From a candidate division FCPU426 bacterium (GTDB lineage: Bacteria > Oederibacteriota > Muellerivitia > Muellerivitales > Muellerivitaceae): 64,000 nucleotides of DNA. The DNA lies in NCBI GenBank assembly GCA_963796105.1, contig CAWCKJ010000004.1, positions 256,001-320,000 on the forward strand, read 5' to 3'. Shown one piece after another: positions 34,189-56,056 of the stretch. The number at the start of each line of letters is the position of its first letter. Within the stretch, counting starts at the first letter, position 1. Both the position numbers and the translations under genes were made by a program. The notes beneath the pieces are model-generated. The model was not told the origin of the DNA, did no database searches, and was given only the letters and a program-made list of their open reading frames with translations.

Positions 34189-35832
34189 CCTGAATTTTGC
34201 ACCGAGTTTACCGATTCCGTGGCCAGATCGGCCTGAATCGGGACCCGACAGTGGCCATTTTCATCAGAAGTGAACTTATGTGCAAAGAATTTTTTGCACC
34301 AAGCCACTTCTAGGCCGCCCTGGGTCTTTCCAATCGTTTTCGATCAAGGTATTTGAGGAAACCCAATAGGCCCGCTGTCCTATCATCATGGATTGAATAC
34401 CTCACCACATCCCGATGGCCGTGATACTGGATTCGGGCGGCTACAAAGAGCATCTTCAAACGTGCGATCCGAAGGGTATGGTCCGGCATGGTGATCTGTT
34501 CCTTCTCCTGTGGCTTCTTTCCCGGTCGCTTTTCTTTTCCACAATGGCCCACCATTAGTTTCATCCACCTCCAGAGGTTGTAAGCCAGCATCACGATCTG
34601 GAAAAAAGCATGGTGGCTTTGGAAACTCTTAGAGGGAATTGCTAATAACCCCTCCCGTTGCGCCTCACCAATCAGGTTTTCCACATCCGCGCGCAGGTCG
34701 TATTCCTCAACCACCCGATGGGGTGCTCCCAGACAGTTGGTCGCGAAGATTCGGTAGACATATCCTTCCATTTCAGGAAGGCTCAATTGTTTCTCCCGCG
34801 CTTTTTCATCCAGCGTCCTCATCGCCACAAACCGGACTGGTTGTTGCCAGCCTATGGGTTGATGGACACATTCGTTGTATTCGTGTTCTCCATGGCGGTA
34901 CCAACCCTTTTTCGTGAAAGGCGGGTCATGCCGCTTGTTCCCGAAGATGAAAGAAAACCCTTCTTTTTCACAGGCTTTCACGCTTTCCCAGCCGATCATT
35001 TCACCGTCACCGCGCACCAGAATCGTCCGGACACAGGACGGCAAGAGTCGCCGGAATTGTCTAATTTGGCGGGCCACTTCCTCAGAACTAAGGGTGGTTC
35101 CGCGTCTTTGGGTTCCGCACAAATATTCCCGGGTTTCCTGGAGAAAACACAGAATGGGCCTCAGTCCCTTCTTGCCCCGGTGCTTGGGGTTGTATCCTTT
35201 TCGGCTTCCCTCGATATTTCCGTAGACCGTTGCGGTGGTGGTATCGATGTTGATCTCCACCTTCTTGGGGGCATATTTCACCTGTCCCCAAACCTTGGCC
35301 CGTAACGCCCCACTCAGATTCAGCAACGATGCCGACTGCCCGATCCCCAGCGACCTCAGGTATCTCCAAAAAGTTGTCACTACCGGCAACAAGGGAACCC
35401 GCAGTAAACCGCACAGCATGACCTCACCCCGCAGGTAGGCAAAATGGCCAAGTCTTTGGAACCCGATGAAAAGAAGCATTAGGATGCCGCTTACCATCCG
35501 GTAGTGGCCCAAATTCGGAAGGCGTTTAGGTGCGGCATAGTGTTTTTTGAATTCCCGCTCAAAATCAAGAAGGTCGAACATCTTCGCCAATGCCAACAAT
35601 CCGCCAAAAGCTGTTAGGCGGTCTTCGCAAATACCTACGGGAGTATTGGCCGTAATCTTGGGCGCGATTCTCCCGTTTCGATTGGCTTTTTTCTGGACTT
35701 GCGGGTTTGATTTCTGAGGCGTATCTTGACGTTTCACCATCTGGGGGACCCTCTTTTAGGATGAGTTGGCTTCGCAACCCTTATCCTATAATGGTTTCCT
35801 AGATGGTTTTTTTATTAGGCGCAAAATTCAGG
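34189..35832 (-). mobile_element. IS1380-family insertion sequence, 1644 bp
   Basis: Terminal IRs CCTGAATTTTGC / GCAAAATTCAGG; 5-bp target duplication TGATA (34184-34188 and 35833-35837). Confidence 0.92.
34310..35740 (-). CDS. IS1380-family transposase
   Basis: LTAFGGL, INIDTT...VYGNIEG...GYNP, VRGDG, YDLRADVENLIGE. Confidence 0.92.
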   Translation of the reverse strand: MVKRQDTPQKSNPQVQKKANRNGRIAPKITANTPVGICEDRLTAFGGLLALAKMFDLLDFEREFKKHYAAPKRLPNLGHYRMVSGILMLLFIGFQRLGHFAYLRGEVMLCGLLRVPLLPVVTTFWRYLRSLGIGQSASLLNLSGALRAKVWGQVKYAPKKVEINIDTTTATVYGNIEGSRKGYNPKHRGKKGLRPILCFLQETREYLCGTQRRGTTLSSEEVARQIRQFRRLLPSCVRTILVRGDGEMIGWESVKACEKEGFSFIFGNKRHDPPFTKKGWYRHGEHEYNECVHQPIGWQQPVRFVAMRTLDEKAREKQLSLPEMEGYVYRIFATNCLGAPHRVVEEYDLRADVENLIGEAQREGLLAIPSKSFQSHHAFFQIVMLAYNLWRWMKLMVGHCGKEKRPGKKPQEKEQITMPDHTLRIARLKMLFVAARIQYHGHRDVVRYSIHDDRTAGLLGFLKYLDRKRLERPRAA

Positions 35833-42340: not shown

Positions 42341-42619
42341 ATGTCCCGAACGACGAGTTTAAAAACAGCAGTTTTGTGGTCAATATGCGCTAATGTTTCC
42401 CCTAATATTCTTCTTTCCCCCTACCCCACTGGCAATAACTGCGAAGTGATTTTTGACTTTTCCCATACGTTTGATAATAACGCCCTCTTCGTACTCCCCA
42501 ATACTCTTTCTTTTTTTCACAATTTATTGAGCAGTTATGAAGATTTAGGCCGCCTTCAACGGACCTGCCAAGTAGCTTGGCGCGAGTTTGGGGAGGGGGT
42601 TCGTCATGGAAGGATTTGA
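42341..42619 (+). CDS. Small hypothetical protein
   Basis: AGGAG RBS, ATG, overlaps the start of the replication gene. Confidence 0.55.
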   Translation: MSRTTSLKTAVLWSICANVSPNILLSPYPTGNNCEVIFDFSHTFDNNALFVLPNTLSFFHNLLSSYEDLGRLQRTCQVAWREFGEGVRHGRI

Positions 42620-44606
42620 AAAGTTAGAACAAGTAAAACTCAAAATATTGAAGGAAATTTTTAGGCTAAAAGAAAAATCCAAAAGAGGGCAGTATCAAGA
42701 AGAAAAATTGGTTTGGTTGATCCATTCTTGTAAGTTATTCGGGTCTTTTCACAATTCCCCCGAACTCATCCAGAAATATCAAAGGCTACTTAACCGTTGG
42801 TATGACTATGAAGATAAACCTGACGAAAAAAGCCGACGAGAGATAGCGCGTATCGAATCCGAATTAAAAATTGTGGAAAAGGAGATGAAAAACGAAAAGG
42901 AAACGTTAGATAAAATGTATGAGGATGCCCCCACATCTCTCCCCTTGTGGTCCTTGGTCACGCCCGAAGAACAGGAAGAGATAACCCCACGCCGAATGAT
43001 TACAAAATCTGAGGGAAAAACAGAGGAATTAATTCACATCTTCGATGACCATGGCGGATGGGTTTTTCGGGACCAGTACAATACCCCTTTCGTCTATCTA
43101 CCTCCGGGGATTAATTCGCCGATTGAATCAGAGAATCTTGAGGCTTGGCTTAGACAAAAACACGGTGAAAAGTCCCTTTCCGACCAACAACTTAAGAATG
43201 TCAAAGGGAGTTTAAAGGGCCGGGCCTTTTCCGAGGGAAGCCCAGTTTATACCCTTTACACCAGAGTGGCGATTATTCGGAAATCCGAAGAGTTTGAGCG
43301 TTCGCCTTGGTTGTTTTGGGGAAGCACGGGGATGGACCCAGAACCCTGGATAATTTACTACGATCTGGGAGACGGACGCGCCGTTCGGATTACTTCTGAG
43401 GATTGGTCTATAGTGGTTCGCCCTCCGATTCTTTTCCGCCGATTCTCCCACCAACATCCACAAGTTGAGCCCAAACGAAGAAAAGGGGCCGATTATTTGG
43501 TTGAAGACGTTTTTAAGCTTTTGGATTTTGTCAATCTTCCAAGACTTCCATGGAAAAAAATTCCTTCAGGTGAAATAAAAGTATACAGCGACCAGGAAGC
43601 CCTTTTCCTGGTTTGGTTTATCGCGGCTTTCATACCGGGATTTCCCCACCCCTTTCTTGCTATCCACGGACCACAAGGAAGCGCGAAATCCACAATGATC
43701 AGGGTTATAAAGGAACTTCTCGACCCGTCCGCTATTCAAACCCTTTCCTTGACCACCCCGGATAACTTTGTCCTTCAAGCCCATTCCCATTGGTTCATCC
43801 CATTAGACAATCTTTCCCACATCTCCGGGGAGATGTCGGATCTTCTAAGCCGAGCTTGCACGGGAGATGGTATTTCCAAGAGAAAGTTATACACAGATGG
43901 GGACGAGTTCATTCTTTCCTTTCAACGGGTTATCGGTCTGAACGGAATCACCTTGGTGACAGCGGCGGCAGACCTATTGGACAGGGCTATTCTTTTTAAT
44001 CTCGACAGGGTTAGGGGAGATAGGCGGCAAACGGAAAAAGATATTTGGAAAAATTTCGAGAAAATGAAACCTTATATCCTTTGTGGTGTGTTCGACGTGT
44101 TGGTAGGTGTGCTTGATGATTTGGAAGAGCGAGAAAAGAACGAAAGAGAAGGCCGAACAAACAAGGACCTTCCCGCTGACCTATCCCGCATGGCCGACTT
44201 TCACCTTTACGGCTTAAAAATAGCCGAATGGCTAGGCTTGCGTAAAGAATTTGAGCGAGGTTACCGCTCCGCTATTCGGCAACAAAACGATGAAGCTATA
44301 GATGCTAACCCGCTTGCTCAAGTGGTCATATCGTTCATGAAGGACAAGACATTTTGGCAAGGTTCACCGACTGAATGCTTGAACGAGTTAAAAAACGAAG
44401 CGGAAAAAATGGGCATTGATACCAAAAGCAAGTATTGGCCCAAAGACTCATCTGCGCTTTCCCGTCGTCTTGAAAAGGCTAAAACGAATTTAGAAACTAT
44501 CGGCATTCGTATGGAACGGAGCAAAAAGGGGGAAAGGCTTATCAACCTAACCAAAGTCCCACTTAAACCAGAGGATGAAACGAATAATGACCATACAACC
44601 CATTGA
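42606..44606 (+). CDS. Primase/helicase-associated P-loop replication protein of the element
   Basis: PHPFLAIHGPQGSAKST Walker A, LDNLS, RKLYTD, LNGI...DLLDRA, RMADF, C-terminal WQGSPTE/WPKD winged helix. Confidence 0.85.
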   Translation: MEGFEKLEQVKLKILKEIFRLKEKSKRGQYQEEKLVWLIHSCKLFGSFHNSPELIQKYQRLLNRWYDYEDKPDEKSRREIARIESELKIVEKEMKNEKETLDKMYEDAPTSLPLWSLVTPEEQEEITPRRMITKSEGKTEELIHIFDDHGGWVFRDQYNTPFVYLPPGINSPIESENLEAWLRQKHGEKSLSDQQLKNVKGSLKGRAFSEGSPVYTLYTRVAIIRKSEEFERSPWLFWGSTGMDPEPWIIYYDLGDGRAVRITSEDWSIVVRPPILFRRFSHQHPQVEPKRRKGADYLVEDVFKLLDFVNLPRLPWKKIPSGEIKVYSDQEALFLVWFIAAFIPGFPHPFLAIHGPQGSAKSTMIRVIKELLDPSAIQTLSLTTPDNFVLQAHSHWFIPLDNLSHISGEMSDLLSRACTGDGISKRKLYTDGDEFILSFQRVIGLNGITLVTAAADLLDRAILFNLDRVRGDRRQTEKDIWKNFEKMKPYILCGVFDVLVGVLDDLEEREKNEREGRTNKDLPADLSRMADFHLYGLKIAEWLGLRKEFERGYRSAIRQQNDEAIDANPLAQVVISFMKDKTFWQGSPTECLNELKNEAEKMGIDTKSKYWPKDSSALSRRLEKAKTNLETIGIRMERSKKGERLINLTKVPLKPEDETNNDHTTH

Positions 44607-44772
44607 AATAGCAATCGGCCAAGCCGCTCCCATCCTTGCCGAAGGTCGCTTACGAGCCAAACGGGACCAAGTACCCATGATGGAAGGCTTAAAAAGAGTA
44701 ATTACCGAAAAATTGAAAACCGCCCTTGAGAAAGCCAATAGTTCTTCATCGGAAACCAATAAGGAAAGTTAA
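44575..44772 (+). CDS. Small hypothetical protein
   Basis: Overlaps the replication gene and is TAATG-coupled to the excisionase. Confidence 0.5.
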   Translation: MKRIMTIQPIEIAIGQAAPILAEGRLRAKRDQVPMMEGLKRVITEKLKTALEKANSSSSETNKES

Positions 44773-44999
44773 TGGAAACGCTACAACACCAGACTAAATA
44801 TTTAACCGTTAATGAGGCGGCGGCTTTCCTTGGTATCGCCGGGGGTACTTTAAGAAATTGGGTTTGCCGTTCCAAATATGAAGCCGATCCGATCCCCTTT
44901 GCCAAATTCACTTCAAGATGTTTGCGGTTCCCTGCTGAAAAATTGGAAGCTTGGGCGGGACGACGTAACACCGGGCCACAAAATGTTAAAGAGCTTTGA
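44772..44999 (+). CDS. Excisionase/AlpA-like HTH_17 protein
   Basis: YLTVNEAAAFLGIAGGTLRNWV...IPFAK...LRF. Confidence 0.88.
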   Translation: METLQHQTKYLTVNEAAAFLGIAGGTLRNWVCRSKYEADPIPFAKFTSRCLRFPAEKLEAWAGRRNTGPQNVKEL

Positions 45000-45071
45000 A
45001 AAAATCTCTTTGGAAGCAAACCACTTTAATGATAGGCTCCCAGCGAGATAAGTTTTGAAAGGTCGAATCTA

Positions 45072-46346
45072 ATGGCTACTCTACAAACGAAGCCTGACAA
45101 GAGAAACGGCGGTATTAAGGCTTTCGCCGTCACTTCAACCATGAATAAGGGCAAACGTTCACGGCAATGGTTATATTTAGGGACATTTCCCACAACAAGG
45201 GAAGCCAAGCAGGTATTTAAGCGGGTTTCCGACAATTTAGGCCGTGAAAAAGTAAGAGAAATTACCCAAGAACGTTTAGACATTAAGATTATTCCCACCC
45301 TTACTGAAGCGGTCCCCCAATATTTTGGTGCAGTAGAGGGCATAAAACTAAATTCATCCAAGGGCCTGAAACCTTACCGCATTGCTTTAAGCCATACTTG
45401 CCGCTTCTTGGGTGATCTAAAACTACATGAATTGACACCCGCTAAAATCGAAGGGTACATTACCACCCGGCGCAAAGAAATCACTTATAGGGGCACTCCT
45501 GTTGGAATAAAGACCATTTCCAATGAGGTTGCCCAACTTTCAAGCCTTTGCGGTTGGGCGGTTAAGAATCAGATATTAAAAAGCCACCCCTTTAAGACAC
45601 CCCAGCAACTTCTTAAGGACTACTTCCCCAAGGTTGAGAAAAAGCCGAAGAATTACCTTAACCAAGAGGAACAAACGGCCATCTTAAAAGCTTCAGAGGA
45701 AAGCCCCTATGCCCAGGTTGTAACCCACCTGCTTTTGTATCTTGGGATACGCCAAGGTGAATTAGCCGGGTTGCGTTATGCTGACGCCGATCTAGCCCGC
45801 CGGGAAATCACGGTAAGGGCGGAAAAAACGAGCGATTACCGAATATTGCCCATCGTTGGGCCATTACTCCCAATATTAGAAAAGCTTAAAACCCATCGCC
45901 CCACTTATCGCCATTGGTATTCCAGGGAAGAAAAGCATAAGGTTTTTTTACTATGTGACGAAGAGGGCAGACCGATAGACCAACCTGGAAAACAATTATT
46001 CGTAAATCTTGCGACCAAAGCGGGATTAACCAAAAAGGTCCGGCCCCATACTTTCCGGCATTCATTCGTTTCAAACATGAGGGCGGCTGGTTTATCGCCT
46101 TATGACATCATGAGCCTAACGGGTCATAAGAACGTGAGCACCTTGGAAGGATACGGAGTAAATGCGCCAAAAGATTTATTGCAGAAAATGGAAAAAGCTT
46201 ATCCCGAAATCAAAACCCAGGTTGAAAAGGTAGATGAAAAGGTAGATAGAAGGTTTATCTGGTTGCAAAGCCCAATAAATACGGGCAAAAAAATGGCTGG
46301 GGCGGTAGGATTCGAACCTACGAATGCCAGATCCAAAATCTGGTGA
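45072..46346 (+). CDS. Phage-type tyrosine integrase
   Basis: LGIRQGELAGL, K, RPHTFRHSF, LTGHKN...Y; last codons overlap tRNA-Gln antisense. Confidence 0.95.
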   Translation: MATLQTKPDKRNGGIKAFAVTSTMNKGKRSRQWLYLGTFPTTREAKQVFKRVSDNLGREKVREITQERLDIKIIPTLTEAVPQYFGAVEGIKLNSSKGLKPYRIALSHTCRFLGDLKLHELTPAKIEGYITTRRKEITYRGTPVGIKTISNEVAQLSSLCGWAVKNQILKSHPFKTPQQLLKDYFPKVEKKPKNYLNQEEQTAILKASEESPYAQVVTHLLLYLGIRQGELAGLRYADADLARREITVRAEKTSDYRILPIVGPLLPILEKLKTHRPTYRHWYSREEKHKVFLLCDEEGRPIDQPGKQLFVNLATKAGLTKKVRPHTFRHSFVSNMRAAGLSPYDIMSLTGHKNVSTLEGYGVNAPKDLLQKMEKAYPEIKTQVEKVDEKVDRRFIWLQSPINTGKKMAGAVGFEPTNARSKIW

Positions 46347-46368
46347 CTTACCGCTTGTCGACGCCCCA
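46294..46368 (-). tRNA. tRNA-Gln(TTG)
   Basis: TGGGGCG acceptor, CCAGA-TTTTGGA-TCTGG anticodon arm, GTAGG-TTCGAAT-CCTAC T arm, GCCA end; 75 nt. Confidence 0.97.
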
Positions 46369-50967: not shown

Positions 50968-52278
50968 TTACCCGCTGAGAACCTTTCGAGCGGCCCCCAG
51001 GCCCTGTTCCATCGCGGATTCCATGGAGCCGTATTCCCAACGCCCATACCTCCCGACAGAAAGCACGTTTTTACGTTCATAAAATTCCAGCAAACGGCCC
51101 GCAGAATCCTCCCGGTTTTGGTCGTAAATCACATAAGCCCCCGGCAGATTCAGGTCTACCCTCGTAACCACATCCTGCGGGGAATGGATCCATTTCAACT
51201 TTTTGAGTTTTTCCAGCACATGGCGACCCAAAGATTCCGCGTCAGGCTTTCTTCCGCGGTAGGAAATCTCCACATACAGGGAGTAATGCCCCTTCGGAGT
51301 GACCCCCGGCACGCAGGCGCTCAAGGAACCCGCCCGGTGGAACAAAAATTCTTTTTCGGGAAAGTACACCCAACTATAGGGAATGGGCTGAAGGCCCTTT
51401 ATCCCGTAATTGATGTTATAGACGGAAGCAGCCTTTAGGCTGGAAGCCGCTCTTTGAAGAGGCGCGGGAAGACCTTGGGTCAAGGCGGCCAGCCCGGGTA
51501 AAGGCAGGCTGGAAACCAAGCTTTTGTATTTCAATTCCAGCCCCGAGGAAAAACAAGCCGTGTGTTTTTCGACATTAATCTTTTTTAATTCCATTCCGGT
51601 CCAAAGCCGGGGCAGCCCGCGCGAAACGGCCCCAGACAGGACGGCAATTCCGCCCGTTTCGGGATATAAAAAGGCAGCGTTATAACCTGCTTGGGAAGGC
51701 TGCCGTTTCAGGGCGCCTTGAATGACACGCAAAATCCTTGGCTCCGGAACAAACCTTCCCATCCAACGCCGGGAAAGTTTCCGCAGGGGGAATTTCCAAA
51801 GTTTTTCGTTGTAGGGAAACATGAAATTCTTTGAAATGCCATCCCCGAAAACGTGTTGGCAATAGGATTTGAAATCCTGCATTTGGTCCAAGTTCTCCGC
51901 CCCAAATCGGCGCCGGAGCATGGCCTCGAGATATCCTAAAACATTCTCTCGGATTGCGGCGGATGGCAATCCGGCGTTGTTCTCCTGGTAAGGATATTCG
52001 CAATAGGCGCTTTGGCTGAAAATAGCCGCGTGCCGGAGCCTTTTTTTCAACCTCAGCCCCGGCAAATTCAAAACCCACTTTTCCATCCCTGGTTTTTGAA
52101 AATGAAGGAAATGGCCAGTGTAGTCGAATGTGAATCCTTTGGTGAGAATCGTGCGGCAAAGGCCGCCTAATTCGCCGGTTTTCTCTGCCAAAAGATAGGG
52201 GCTTGAGGCCTCGGATAAAGCCCTCGCACAGGTAAGGCCCGCCAAACCCCCTCCGGCAATGAGAGTCTCAATCCTCAC
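50968..52278 (-). CDS. FAD-dependent oxidoreductase (protoporphyrinogen oxidase/UDP-galactopyranose mutase-like)
   Basis: IAGGGLAGL, GGLCRT...FTFDYTGHFLH, PYNEKLW, GRYGRWEY. Confidence 0.85.
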   Translation of the reverse strand: MRIETLIAGGGLAGLTCARALSEASSPYLLAEKTGELGGLCRTILTKGFTFDYTGHFLHFQKPGMEKWVLNLPGLRLKKRLRHAAIFSQSAYCEYPYQENNAGLPSAAIRENVLGYLEAMLRRRFGAENLDQMQDFKSYCQHVFGDGISKNFMFPYNEKLWKFPLRKLSRRWMGRFVPEPRILRVIQGALKRQPSQAGYNAAFLYPETGGIAVLSGAVSRGLPRLWTGMELKKINVEKHTACFSSGLELKYKSLVSSLPLPGLAALTQGLPAPLQRAASSLKAASVYNINYGIKGLQPIPYSWVYFPEKEFLFHRAGSLSACVPGVTPKGHYSLYVEISYRGRKPDAESLGRHVLEKLKKLKWIHSPQDVVTRVDLNLPGAYVIYDQNREDSAGRLLEFYERKNVLSVGRYGRWEYGSMESAMEQGLGAARKVLSG

Positions 52279-53372
52279 TTCTTTTTCCTCGGCTTGGCCG
52301 GTTTACCGGCGGAGGGCGGTTCCAAACTGACGCGGAATGGGTTTTCTCGGATTTTCTTGAGCCCATCATCCACCTGCACGTTGGAAATGAAAAAAGTGAA
52401 GATCAAAGTCATGAAAAAAAACAAAACCATTAAAGCCAGTGCCCTTTTTTCGGATATGCGGACAAGCAACCCCGCCCCGCACGCTAGTAAAAAGGAAAGG
52501 GTCCAAAGGCTTAGGACTGTTTGCTTGACCGTAAATCCCAAGCGCCTGATACGCAGGGCCAAATGGTCGTTGGAACCCCTGAACATCGAGCGACCTTTCA
52601 GGAAGCGCAGAACCATGACCAGGGCTGTGTCGTAAAGGGGAATGCCTAGAATCAGCAGGGGTCCGCATAACGCGACCACGTTCATTTGGGAATAACCATG
52701 GCCCAAGGCGAATCCGGCGAGCATGAAACCCAGGAAAAGGGCTCCTGAGTCACCCATATAAATGCTCGCAGGTTGGAAATTATAGGGCAAGAATCCCAGA
52801 ACGCTTCCTCCCAGCGCCGCAGCCGTTAGGAGGACATAACTTTGCCCGCCGAGAAAAGGCACGAATACGAATCCGGCGCAGGCGACAAAGACGATTCCGC
52901 CCGCCAACCCATCCATGATATCGATCAGATTGACGGCATTGGTCACCGCCACGATCCAAAAGAGGGTCAATCCATATCCCAGAAGAGGATGGCTGGGAAG
53001 GAACTCCAATTTGACGCCGAAAAGAATCAGCAGACCCGCGGCCAGGAACTCAAAAAGAAACTTGACCGCCGGGGAGAGGGAAAAAAGATCATCCACTAAA
53101 CCCATCAAAGCCATGACTGTCCCCCCTACCAAAAGGGCCAGGATCCGAGATGAGTCCGGCAGAGGGGTCAAGACTAAGGTTCCAAGAATAGCCATTAAAA
53201 AGGAGAAATAAACAGCCAATCCGCCCAAATAAGGGACGGGGGCAGTGTGTTTTTTAAGCTGGCCCAAGGGGGTATCCAGGAATTGGGATCTCCTGGCGAT
53301 CTTCCGGAATAGGGGGGTCAATCCAAGGGATAACATGAAGGAAATGATAAAAACAGACCAATTCGCGTTCGT
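52275..53372 (-). CDS. Undecaprenyl-phosphate GlcNAc-1-phosphate transferase (WecA/TagO, MraY-like)
   Basis: H..PVPYLGG, GLVDD, NAVNLIDIMDGL, YNFQPASIYMGDSG; SD-aligned codon is ACG (53372), first ATG at 53336. Confidence 0.9.
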   Translation of the reverse strand, partial: TNANWSVFIISFMLSLGLTPLFRKIARRSQFLDTPLGQLKKHTAPVPYLGGLAVYFSFLMAILGTLVLTPLPDSSRILALLVGGTVMALMGLVDDLFSLSPAVKFLFEFLAAGLLILFGVKLEFLPSHPLLGYGLTLFWIVAVTNAVNLIDIMDGLAGGIVFVACAGFVFVPFLGGQSYVLLTAAALGGSVLGFLPYNFQPASIYMGDSGALFLGFMLAGFALGHGYSQMNVVALCGPLLILGIPLYDTALVMVLRFLKGRSMFRGSNDHLALRIRRLGFTVKQTVLSLWTLSFLLACGAGLLVRISEKRALALMVLFFFMTLIFTFFISNVQVDDGLKKIRENPFRVSLEPPSAGKPAKPRKKK

Positions 53373-53515
53373 GAATCACCTCCGAAAGCTTGAAATGTAG
53401 GGAATCAGCACTTAAGTATTAAATATTGAGGTTTTTACCTATTGACCGCCCGCAATATAACATAAGGCTGGTTCATCCCCAATTGGGGATGATCGGAATT
53501 GAAAGGATTTTGGAC

Positions 53516-53546
53516 AAAAAAAAGCCCCGGTGGGTCAGACCGAGGC
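53516..53546 (-). terminator. Intrinsic terminator
   Basis: GCCTCGGT-loop-ACCGGGGC followed by T8. Confidence 0.8.
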
Positions 53547-53609
53547 TCCTAGGAGGTGAGTGTTTTAAAGATGTTTCGTTTGAAAGCCAGCCAACTAAAG
53601 CCAGCTGAC
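53516..53609 (-). ncRNA. Putative sigma54-dependent small RNA with an anti-SD motif
   Basis: Bounded by a -24/-12 promoter and an intrinsic terminator; 5' hairpin; single-stranded ACACUCACCUCCU. Confidence 0.6.
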
Positions 53610-53619
53610 TACTTTAATA

Positions 53620-53635
53620 AGCAAAGTCTATGCCA
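53620..53635 (-). promoter_or_regulatory. Sigma54 -24/-12 promoter
   Basis: TGGCAT-AGACT-TTGCT matches TGGCAC-N5-TTGC. Confidence 0.8.
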
Positions 53636-53697
53636 TGTTTTGGCGCATAGAAAAGCATTGAAAAACAAGGGTTTTTGGAAATAAATGAAAAATATAA

Positions 53698-53748
53698 CTG
53701 TATAAAAATTTTACACTATCAACAAAGTGTATTAATACTTAACACTTT
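53698..53748. promoter_or_regulatory. Two putative enhancer-binding-protein sites
   Basis: TGTATAAAAATTTTACA and AAGTGTATTAATACTTAACACTT dyads ~90-140 bp upstream of the predicted sigma54 start; IHF-like box at ~53657-53675. Confidence 0.55.
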
Positions 53749-53749
53749 T

Positions 53750-55633
53750 TCATTTGCTTTCCAGCGTAATCCCATATTTCCTCATTTTTTGATAAAGAGT
53801 TGGGCGGCTGATCCCCAATTTATTTGCTGCCCGTTTCTTGTTAAATCGCAAATCCTTCAATATCCTTAAAATCATGTCTTTTTCGACTGTTTCCAGGACA
53901 CCCGCGTTCGGCATGGTTTGTGTGTAGTGAGAAAGGTCGGAATTGAAATTCGTGATTTCGGGGGGCAAATGCTGGGGTTGAATCAAAATATCGTCGTTCA
54001 GGGTCACGATCCTCTCAATCACGTTTTCCAATTCCCGCACATTCCCCGGCCAACGGTGGCGCTGCAGGATCTCCAAAGCCTTGGCCGATACCCCCTCAAA
54101 ACGGTTGGGTTTCTTGCCTCTCATTCGTTCCAAGAAATACCGGATGAGAAGGATCATGTCTCCCTCCCTTTCGCGCAACGGAGGCATTTCAATCACGATC
54201 ACGTTCAACCGATAGAAGAGATCCTCCCGAAACCTGCCGTTTTGGATCGCCTTTTTCAAATTCCGGTTGGTCGCGCAGATCACGCGGATGTTCACCTTAA
54301 GCGTGTCATTTCCTCCCACCCTCTGGAATTCCCGCTCCTGAAGCACCCGAAGAAGCTTAACCTGGGTGGCAAGGGAGATGTCCCCGATCTCATCGAGAAA
54401 TATTGTTCCCTTGTCCGCGATCTCGAATTTTCCTTTTTTCTGGCCGATGGCCCCCGTAAAGGATCCTTGTTCATGTCCGAATAGCTCGCTTTCCAATAGC
54501 GATTCGCTTAAAGCCGCGCATGCGATCGGCACAAAGGGTTTATCGTGTCTTCCCGATTGCTGATGAACCGCCCGGGCAACAAGTTCTTTTCCAGTCCCAT
54601 TCTCCCCCAAAATCAATACAGTCGCGTCGCTGGCGGCAGCCCTCTTGATCAAATCCTGGATTTTCCGCATCGGCAGACTGTTCCCGATGAGGTTGGATTC
54701 CTCCAACAGCCGGCCTTTATCGGACGCAGCTACTGAGACCATTGATTTTGAAATGGAAAAAAGGATGGAAGCCGCGTCCTTGGACGATTTGACGAAATCC
54801 TCATAATCCTCCTTCATCCTTCCCGTCAAACCTTCATGGTAATAGACCTGCCCCAGATTATATACAGCGTTCACGTGTCCTGGGTTCACCTTGAGAACCG
54901 CCTTGAACTCAGCCACGGCCTTTTCCAGATCCCCTTTTTTGAAATACCCGATCCCAAGACCGTTTTGAATGTTTAGCCGTTCCTCTCCTACAGGAAAAAT
55001 TTTTAACGCCTTTTTATAGACTTTGATGGCCTCGTCATAACGTTCCAAAGCCATGAGGCATTCCCCAATGCTCCCCAACGCCATAACATTCACAGGATTT
55101 CCCCCAATCACTAATTGATATTGCTCCAAAGCCTTCTCAAGCTCACCTCTTTCCTTGTAAAGAGCTCCCAAGTTGAGATGGCATTGAAAAGTAAGGGACT
55201 CCGAGGAATGAAAAAGACCGAGATAATAGCTTCCCGGGGTTATTGGATGGATCAAATGCAGTGTTTCCATGAAGGAAAACATGGCGTCGTTGACATGGCC
55301 CCTTTTCATATGCATGAGCCCGATGTTGAAGTGGGTGTCCAATTGGTTTGGCTGGATTTTCAAGGCCTTTGCGTAATAATCCACGGCCATGTTGAAATCC
55401 TGCAAATGAAAGGCGGCGTGGCCGGCATCCCGAATCGAAAAAGCGCTGAATGGTTTTTTCTTTACCACTGCCTTGAAAAGCTTGAGAGCTTCGACGTATT
55501 CCCCTTCCTCGAATGCATCCATACCATCCATGGTTTCCTTTTCCAATGCCTCCTGGACCGCCCCGCAAACCGGGCAAAAATGGTATTCAGTTTGGAGAGT
55601 CTGCCCGCATTCACGGCAAGTGTAGGTATCCAT
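53750..55633 (-). CDS. Sigma54 enhancer-binding protein with N-terminal zinc ribbon and TPR array
   Basis: CRECG...CPVCG, TPRs, [39 protein letters not shown], Fis HTH. Confidence 0.95.
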
Positions 55634-55636
55634 GGC

Positions 55637-56056
55637 TTAATCCCCGGGCCGAGTTGTCTTAGGGCCTAAGTCCTTTGGAGCCTTTGATTTTTTTCGAGGT
55701 TTTTTGGGAACGGATGAGAGCTTCTCAATTTGAAGGGTGACTAAGTGGTTGGCCTGCGGATGATCTGCGTAATTTTTTCTGAGTCTTTCATAATATTTCC
55801 GGGCTTCCGTCAGGCGTCCTGCCTTCTCAAGTTTGTATCCCTTTCGAAATACTTTTTCAAACTCAATCAAGCGCTGCTGGTCGGCCTCGGACAAATGGGT
55901 GGTCCAAAGAAAACCGGAAGCCGTCAAAGCAGCCAAAGTCATCAAATAGATGAAGTAAGGGGGAAAAACCAAGACTCCCAAAAGATTGACGATTGTCAAT
56001 CCTCCCCAATCCACGTTTTTCAAAATAGTTTTTTGCAAAAGCAGGCTCCCAAACAA
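55637..56056 (-). CDS. Small membrane protein with a TPR-like helix pair
   Basis: N-terminal hydrophobic segment; stop 3 nt before the activator start. Confidence 0.55.
   Translation of the reverse strand: MFGSLLLQKTILKNVDWGGLTIVNLLGVLVFPPYFIYLMTLAALTASGFLWTTHLSEADQQRLIEFEKVFRKGYKLEKAGRLTEARKYYERLRKNYADHPQANHLVTLQIEKLSSVPKKPRKKSKAPKDLGPKTTRPGD

Follow-up and report, generated by a model that had tools for sequence, protein, structure and literature searches.

A predicted small RNA with a sigma54-type promoter and complementarity to the starts of type IV pilin genes

The DNA analysed here, a stretch of 64 000 nucleotides from a candidate division FCPU426 bacterium (the window), very probably includes a gene for a trans-acting small RNA (sRNA) that would be transcribed from a sigma54 promoter under the control of a TPR-type activator, is complementary to the starts of pilin genes and likely blocks their translation. 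The main predicted seed is a 17-nt stretch that lies 5′ of an anti-Shine–Dalgarno (anti-SD) segment and matches the first pilin codons, and is not the anti-SD itself. The window lies on contig C4 of the host genome (G000), which is 4.98 Mb in size and 96.8% complete.

The features of the locus are listed in Table 1. The dyads, sigma54 box, hairpin, unpaired CUCACCUCC and terminator that the initial annotation had described on the minus strand were all found in their stated places. On that strand the sRNA unit consists of two hairpins flanking an open linker, with a folding energy of −30.7 kcal/mol (z −2.97) that was equalled or bettered by 3 of 200 shuffles. The plus strand of the same unit gave a z of −0.59. 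The 3′ end of the 16S rRNA of the host is GAUCACCUCCUU. The activator has an N-terminal CxxC..CxxC zinc-ribbon-like motif, TPR repeats, an AAA+ domain and a Fis-type HTH (SRPTLY), and it reaches the cut-off of none of the 25 NCBIfam families listed, including the LuxO model (296 bits against a cut-off of 800). The small protein encoded upstream of it matched no Pfam family above cut-off, with a weak TPR match at E 0.003.

Table 1. Predicted features of the locus and examples of the basic ORF found outside the order
Feature	Position	Strand	Basis or comment
Sigma54 activator (bEBP), 627 aa	53750..55633	−	Pfam PF00158, TPR families, PF02954
Small protein ORF, 139 aa, N-terminal hydrophobic stretch	55637..56056	−	Stops 3 nt before activator start
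Upstream activator site 1, TGT-N11-ACA	53728..53744		Sequence; at least two such sites in 29/31 genomes
Upstream activator site 2, TGT-N11-ACA	53699..53715		29 nt from site 1
AT-rich spacer element	53651..53663	−	IHF site not supported
Sigma54 −24/−12 promoter, TGGCAT-N5-TTGCT	53620..53635	−	Box before 31/31 model matches; predicted +1 about 53609
Predicted sRNA, about 95 nt	53516..53611	−	Folding, covariance model; probable 5′ end near 53609
5′ hairpin, sequence variable, structure kept	53585..53610	−	Both sides changed in 5/5 pairs
Site 1: 17-nt seed complementary to pilin codons 1–6	53571..53587	−	Ranking, exact complement, covariation
Site 2: unpaired anti-SD CUCACCUCC, predicted partner pilin SDs	53552..53560	−	Folding; per-genome matches
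Site 3: terminator-loop GACCC, complementary to GGGUC of pilin 5′ leaders	53532..53536	−	31/31 RNAs
Intrinsic terminator, 12-bp stem and U-tail	53516..53550	−	Folding, sequence
Extended −10 element	53454..53462	−	3′ of terminator in 24/31 genomes
wecA/mraY-like gene (PF00953)	52275..53372	−	SD at 53376–53383; start probably non-canonical ACG (53370–53372)
Basic ORF, examples from other genomes	L027:1094–1288, L028:1147–1332, L029:3529–3714, L030:3475–3660; also L272–L286		

Two further observations concern other parts of the window. A tRNA gene (46297–46368, minus strand) lies beside a tyrosine-integrase-like ORF (45072–46346) and a primase/helicase-like ORF (42588–44606), the labels being taken from translations, and the region 42588–46368 is likely the edge of an integrated element. 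A 25-nt motif near 34954–34978 (C4:290954) is found at about 20 places in the genome and probably marks one end of a multicopy insertion sequence.

To examine conservation, the DNA downstream of 30 activator orthologues was read and a covariance model was built from 23 copies of the RNA. The model found one copy each in 31 of the 32 genomes of the order and none in the 67 other genomes of the phylum. The single genome of the order with no match is 63% complete, and 8 of the 31 matches come from outside the training set. In an earlier search, a second weak match was found in G005 (E 0.009) and matches with E values of 0.013–0.15 were found in four genomes of other families, none of which passed in the final search. 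The RNA is 79–100 nt long in the relatives, and 9 of the 13 pairs in the structure change on both sides, which was reached in 0 of 500 shuffles of an alignment fitted to the model. The Rfam search that had been proposed returned no match to an sRNA; only the tRNA was found in the window at gathering score, and the best match in 53300–53800 was to an unrelated family with an E value of 0.44. These data support a conserved, structured, single-copy and apparently non-coding unit with its own predicted sigma54 promoter and terminator, as had originally been suggested.

A match to the sigma54 consensus is in itself at chance level in the window (1 found, 1.63 expected), and the box was taken as real because it is conserved just upstream of all 31 covariance-model matches. 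The dyads are of the TGTAA-N7-TTACA type, with at least one in 31/31 genomes and at least two in 29/31 (counts made without a shuffle control), and a spacing of about 29 nt between them recurs in most relatives. Across the host genome a dyad located 30–170 nt before a sigma54 box was found at this promoter only. This suggests that the sRNA is likely the main output of the activator, and the promoter is most likely driven by this adjacent TPR activator, in agreement with the link drawn in the initial annotation. The IHF-like box that it also listed did not hold up, with 2 or fewer mismatches to the E. coli consensus in 16/31 genomes compared with 14.6 in shuffles.

In a few relatives the activator gene and the RNA are separated. 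In G019 an IS-like insertion comes after the activator gene, and the RNA is found on another contig with both dyads kept, while G002 and G021 (L003 and L005) have about 1 kb of extra DNA between the activator and the RNA promoter. In all three (G019 is L010) the dyads and promoter remain with the RNA.

A self-search of the host genome located further matches to the linker of the RNA, in antisense orientation, where type IV pilin genes begin; these genes have the N-methylation motif. The longest exact complements of the linker elsewhere in the genome, of 17 and 15 nt, are both at pilin starts, and three 14-nt matches are at one pilin start, one other gene start and one unassigned position. Potential targets were ranked over 3804 gene starts from a self-trained gene set (79% coding) using duplex energies, which take no account of mRNA structure; one pilin start was mis-called and was scored apart. 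Ranks 1–4 were occupied by four pilin paralogues (C2:280209, C3:849022, C4:402674 and C4:403663), with energies of −34.0, −33.5, −32.9 and −30.2 kcal/mol. The next gene gave −24.4 kcal/mol and the mean of all starts was −10.9 (sd 3.9). The fifth pilin was found at rank 16 and the sixth (−21.0 kcal/mol) at about rank 38. When the ranking was left unfiltered (21 085 starts), shadow ORFs came out on top and the best pilins were at 13–14.

The six pilin paralogues of the host genome, the four listed above and those at C3:756491 and C4:545935, are dispersed and nearly equal in length, and two of the proteins are identical. The relatives have 1–7 pilins each, usually including one with a long (9-residue) leader. 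A gene at C2:180466 (plus strand) encodes a 406-aa protein whose N-terminus is lipoprotein-like; its start is exactly complementary to the linker over 14 nt and ranks 11 of 3804. It is a possible secondary target.

Pilin starts were gathered from the relatives, with G005 and G008 having no usable start. For pilins with short leaders, RNA and pilin pairs from the same genome gave −28.9 compared with −24.4 for foreign pairs, and this own-genome advantage was matched in 0 of 100 000 permutations both with 29 genomes and with one genome per genus (n=15), although such counts overstate significance because the genomes are related. In the long-leader class, 3623 of 100 000 permutations were as good (n=15). 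In the wecA control, 93 441 of 100 000 were as good (n=20) and there was no own-genome advantage.

The substitutions in the seed were examined column by column in 27 genomes; G017 and G025 (no seed anchor) were excluded, as were G005 and G008 (no pilin start). The RNA fits the majority pilin base at mRNA position +4 in 24/24 untied genomes, 5 of which have changed on both sides, and at +12 in 20/22. Counting only tree-independent pairs left 3 in each of these columns: at +4, 3.0 agreed in direction and 0 were opposed, and at +12, 2.8 agreed and none was opposed. With so few pairs p cannot drop below 0.25. Over columns 2–17, 27 cells had changed alike on both sides, with 332 unchanged and 39 ties. 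Of the 34 unmatched cells, 24 had a change confined to the RNA and 8 one confined to the mRNA, and the remaining 2 had changed in different ways; G–U wobble accounted for 3 of the 34. As individual examples, the pilins of the host genome begin with MFRLK and its RNA alone has the matching change, and the pilins of G004, G020 and G012 begin with MVR and their RNAs match. G017 and G025 were found to have no coding seed; their predicted pairing is concentrated at the SD, and the best values for own-genome pairs are −23.3 and −14.8, respectively. The anti-SD varies by lineage in step with the pilin SDs (G003, G007, G017, G023 and G025). The unit therefore has the properties expected of a trans-encoded sRNA, namely its own predicted promoter, an intrinsic terminator, conserved structure, no conserved ORF and an exposed seed whose complement lies in an unlinked mRNA, with changes matched on both sides, the independent events being as few as noted above.

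The loop of the terminator provides a third potential contact. The complement of its GACCC, GGGTC, was more enriched than any other 5-mer in the pilin leaders of the order (45 of 86 leaders, 25 of 30 genomes). Families that lack the RNA had it in 0 of 18 pilin leaders. GGGTC was also present in 11 of 112 non-pilin leaders of the order, in 260 of 3804 leaders of the host genome and in just 2 of the 6 pilin leaders of the host. Its position is restricted, with 48 of 56 occurrences 32–57 nt before the start, and of the 23 leaders that have a TTGAC-type promoter, 13 carry it downstream of the −10 element, placing it inside the predicted mRNA. The RNA presents its sites in the sequence seed, anti-SD and loop, antiparallel to the succession in the mRNA (GGGUC, SD, codons). 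In G012 and G008 (L022 and L023), GACCC is also present in the loop of the 5′ hairpin, so that the loop motif is shown twice per RNA.

The genome contains seven strict sigma54 boxes, none at a pilin gene, and the pilin genes examined have sigma70-type promoters rather than sigma54 boxes. It is therefore likely that the RNA converts an activating sigma54 signal into pilus repression. In the textbook case, PilR and sigma54 turn pilin transcription on. If the reading proposed here is true, sigma54 would in this organism turn pilin translation off through an RNA. Two of the strict boxes, at C4:748472 (minus strand) and C6:224449 (plus strand), have no SD and ATG immediately after them, and the stretch that follows one of them contains the anti-SD-like sequence CCCACUCCU. 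These are possible further sigma54 RNAs or long leaders.

The arrangement of sites suggests the following course of events. A signal, possibly relayed via the small membrane protein encoded upstream, would turn the activator on, and the activator would bind the two conserved dyads and fire the sigma54 promoter. An RNA of about 95 nt, predicted to end at the intrinsic terminator, would then meet the pilin mRNAs at up to three antiparallel sites, with the loop GACCC facing a GGGUC (mostly 32–57 nt before the start), the anti-SD facing the SD and the 5′ seed facing codons 1–6; the complementarity and covariation point to such pairing in the cell. The ribosome would be shut out and pilin synthesis would drop for all well-matched paralogues together. 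Occlusion of the ribosome-binding site, as the initial annotation had proposed, is thus the likely mechanism, over pilin starts and not over the wecA-like gene that it had named.

The host genome has a sigma54 gene, ComEC, four HU/IHF-family genes, KhpA/KhpB and a pilB/T/C/M/N/Q-like cluster (names beyond PilM read from translations). No member of the Hfq, ProQ or CsrA families was found in this 96.8% complete genome, and there was likewise no ProQ/FinO match in it. The system would work in a genome with KhpA/KhpB in which Hfq, ProQ and CsrA were not found. The long pairing may make an RNA chaperone unnecessary, and a role for KhpA/KhpB together with the sRNA is a guess that draws on the accessible part of one report (PMC10117727).

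It is improbable that the RNA pairs with the pilin mRNAs to some other end, sorting the paralogues, altering mRNA stability or being titrated as a sensor. Sorting would be consistent with the spread of the matches, from −34 to −21 kcal/mol within the host genome and similar in the relatives, and sorting or tuning with the recurrent mismatches, the A of the AUG being unmatched in 23 of 27 genomes and +7 in 4. However, three of the four best-matched paralogues encode near-identical proteins, which leaves little to switch among. The predicted pairing also spans the SD, the start codon and five more codons, the usual geometry for blocking initiation and the one described for Arp in the accessible text of that study (PMC12338739).

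We consider a plus-strand or DNA-level role of the element very unlikely, whether it be a relic or decoy of a pilin leader, a small ORF or a cassette for recombination. Its reverse complement does resemble a pilin leader, with GGGTC, an SD and pilin-like first codons, there is a 37-aa frame with an ATG in the host genome, and the unmatched cells have no G–U bias (3/34). However, the frame is 3–49 aa long in the relatives and is therefore not a conserved ORF; neither length nor sequence is kept past the seed, and an ATG is present in only 3 of 28 genomes (with the G012 row misplaced). The sigma54 box, the U-tail and the stronger folding all favour the minus strand. The three sites are separated by spacers that vary freely, more in keeping with RNA pairing than with homologous recombination.

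There is equally little to recommend silencing of the downstream wecA-like gene, or of many genes, through the anti-SD. The 8/8 match to the wecA SD reported in the initial annotation is real in this genome, GGAGGTGA is found at only 10 of 3804 called starts, and the RNA and wecA are neighbours in most genomes. However, the match is confined to 1 of 20 genomes (GGAGGUGA in only 1/20 wecA leaders), the duplex (−16.0 kcal/mol) ranks 373 of 3804, the RNA pairs no better with the wecA leader of its own genome than with foreign ones, and the lineage variation of the anti-SD fits the pilin SDs in the five genomes named above. On the ranking, the single leader match and the lack of an own-genome advantage, wecA was rejected as the sRNA target. 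A CsrA-titrating RNA was also rejected, as the CsrA family was not found in the genome.

The wecA-like gene likely has a separate sigma70-type promoter, to which the extended −10 element would belong. At the equivalent place in 20 genomes its apparent start codon is CTG in 15, TTG in 3, ATG in 1 and ACG in 1 (the host genome), each behind a GGAG SD at the same position. A non-canonical wecA start found across the order suggests deliberately low translation.

In sister families beyond the order, what comes after this activator is an ORF for a basic protein of about 60–66 aa with invariant GHxGxG and KKG motifs (Table 1). With the query used, this ORF was found in 28 of 67 genomes outside the order and 0 of 32 within it, and in the 15 loci that were read, the activator was adjacent in 13 and a sigma54-type box was present in 13. 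A structural model of the protein (pLDDT 88) most resembled ribosomal eL20/LX, weakly (Z 6.1, rmsd 3.1, 54 residues). Searches for a Pfam family, for an Atlas match at 0.9 and for a Foldseek match at E≤0.001 were all negative (eL20/LX had an E value of 0.15), and the likeness may be only a common fold.

A wider scenario, which is offered tentatively and which we regard as rather unlikely, is that the module swapped its output. In this order, a basic protein of about 62 aa with a predicted eL20/LX-like fold, driven in sister families by the same activator from the same promoter position, would have been replaced by an RNA born as an inverted pilin leader, which then co-evolved with the pilins and acts at three sites without Hfq or ProQ, so that one signal silences or chooses paralogues without DNA recombination, and the protein would stand for the RNA in that switch. 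Sister families have the small protein as output in place of the RNA, and this mutual exclusion offers a case for studying the origin of sRNA genes and promoter takeover. The targets of sRNAs can rarely be assigned from sequence, and here the target family, the sites and the matched substitutions are all readable from the genomes of an uncultured lineage.

Literature searches, with most subscription papers outside their scope, brought up Arp and the Neisseria antisense RNA but nothing on this RNA and no sigma54-driven sRNA directed at pilins. The description of the module as new has to be qualified, as a pilin-repressing sRNA, Arp, has been published. The RNA was not assigned to Arp, Qrr or Pxr because there was no Rfam match and the activator is different.

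The parallel with the wiring of Qrr and Pxr that was drawn initially is apt. In vibrios, Qrr/LuxO involves a receiver-domain activator, several RNA copies and quorum-sensing regulator targets, and it is Hfq-dependent. The LuxO sigma54 activator makes the translation-repressing sRNAs Qrr1–5, according to the available text of one source (10.1101/2021.07.01.450815). The RNA described here appears to share with Qrr a sigma54 promoter driven by a bEBP and the turning of activation into repression. It differs in its TPR activator, which is below the LuxO cut-off, its single RNA copy, its structural pilin targets, the lack of an Rfam match and a genome in which Hfq was not found.

In Myxococcus, the accessible part of the Pxr study (PMC5684412) describes an sRNA gene directly downstream of an NtrC-like activator in a host without Hfq, with a predicted sigma54 promoter and enhancer region, three stem-loops, input from PxrK/PxrR and a direct target that was not known there. 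The present sRNA is likewise directly downstream of its own sigma54 activator gene, but it has two hairpins and no Rfam match.

Two other RNAs act on pili or DNA uptake. An antisense RNA in Neisseria meningitidis is complementary to the major pilin transcript and lies within the pilin locus (pilE; PMC4402397, accessible text), whereas the RNA found here comes from a separate locus and has its matches in several pilin genes that are not linked to it. RocR of Legionella pneumophila, as outlined in the available portion of PMC12338739, represses the DNA-uptake machinery at an mRNA leader, targeting comEA, and needs the FinO-family protein RocC. In contrast, there is no ProQ/FinO match in the present genome.

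Arp of Acinetobacter baumannii is 72–96 nt long with two hairpins and a U-tail. Its repression of pilA involves pairing that covers the SD and the first codons, and four cytosines at the terminator-loop tip take part (PMC12338739, accessible text). It has been proposed to be activated by BfmR and has one pilA target in an Hfq-containing gammaproteobacterium, and RpoN is never mentioned in the same accessible text (PMC12338739). The likeness to Arp is one of working and lies in the predicted pairing over the pilin SD and first codons, the two hairpins with a U-tail and the C-rich tip of the terminator loop (GACCC in 31/31). The present RNA differs in having a sigma54 promoter, dyads and a TPR-type activator in place of a BfmR-linked promoter, several pilin paralogues as predicted targets, three separate colinear sites with the loop site upstream of the SD, and a genome in which Hfq and ProQ were not found. 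Arp is the closest parallel in working, and Pxr and Qrr are the parallels in wiring. That a loop site and a pilin target are shared with Arp in so distant an organism suggests convergence on one way of silencing pilin mRNAs.
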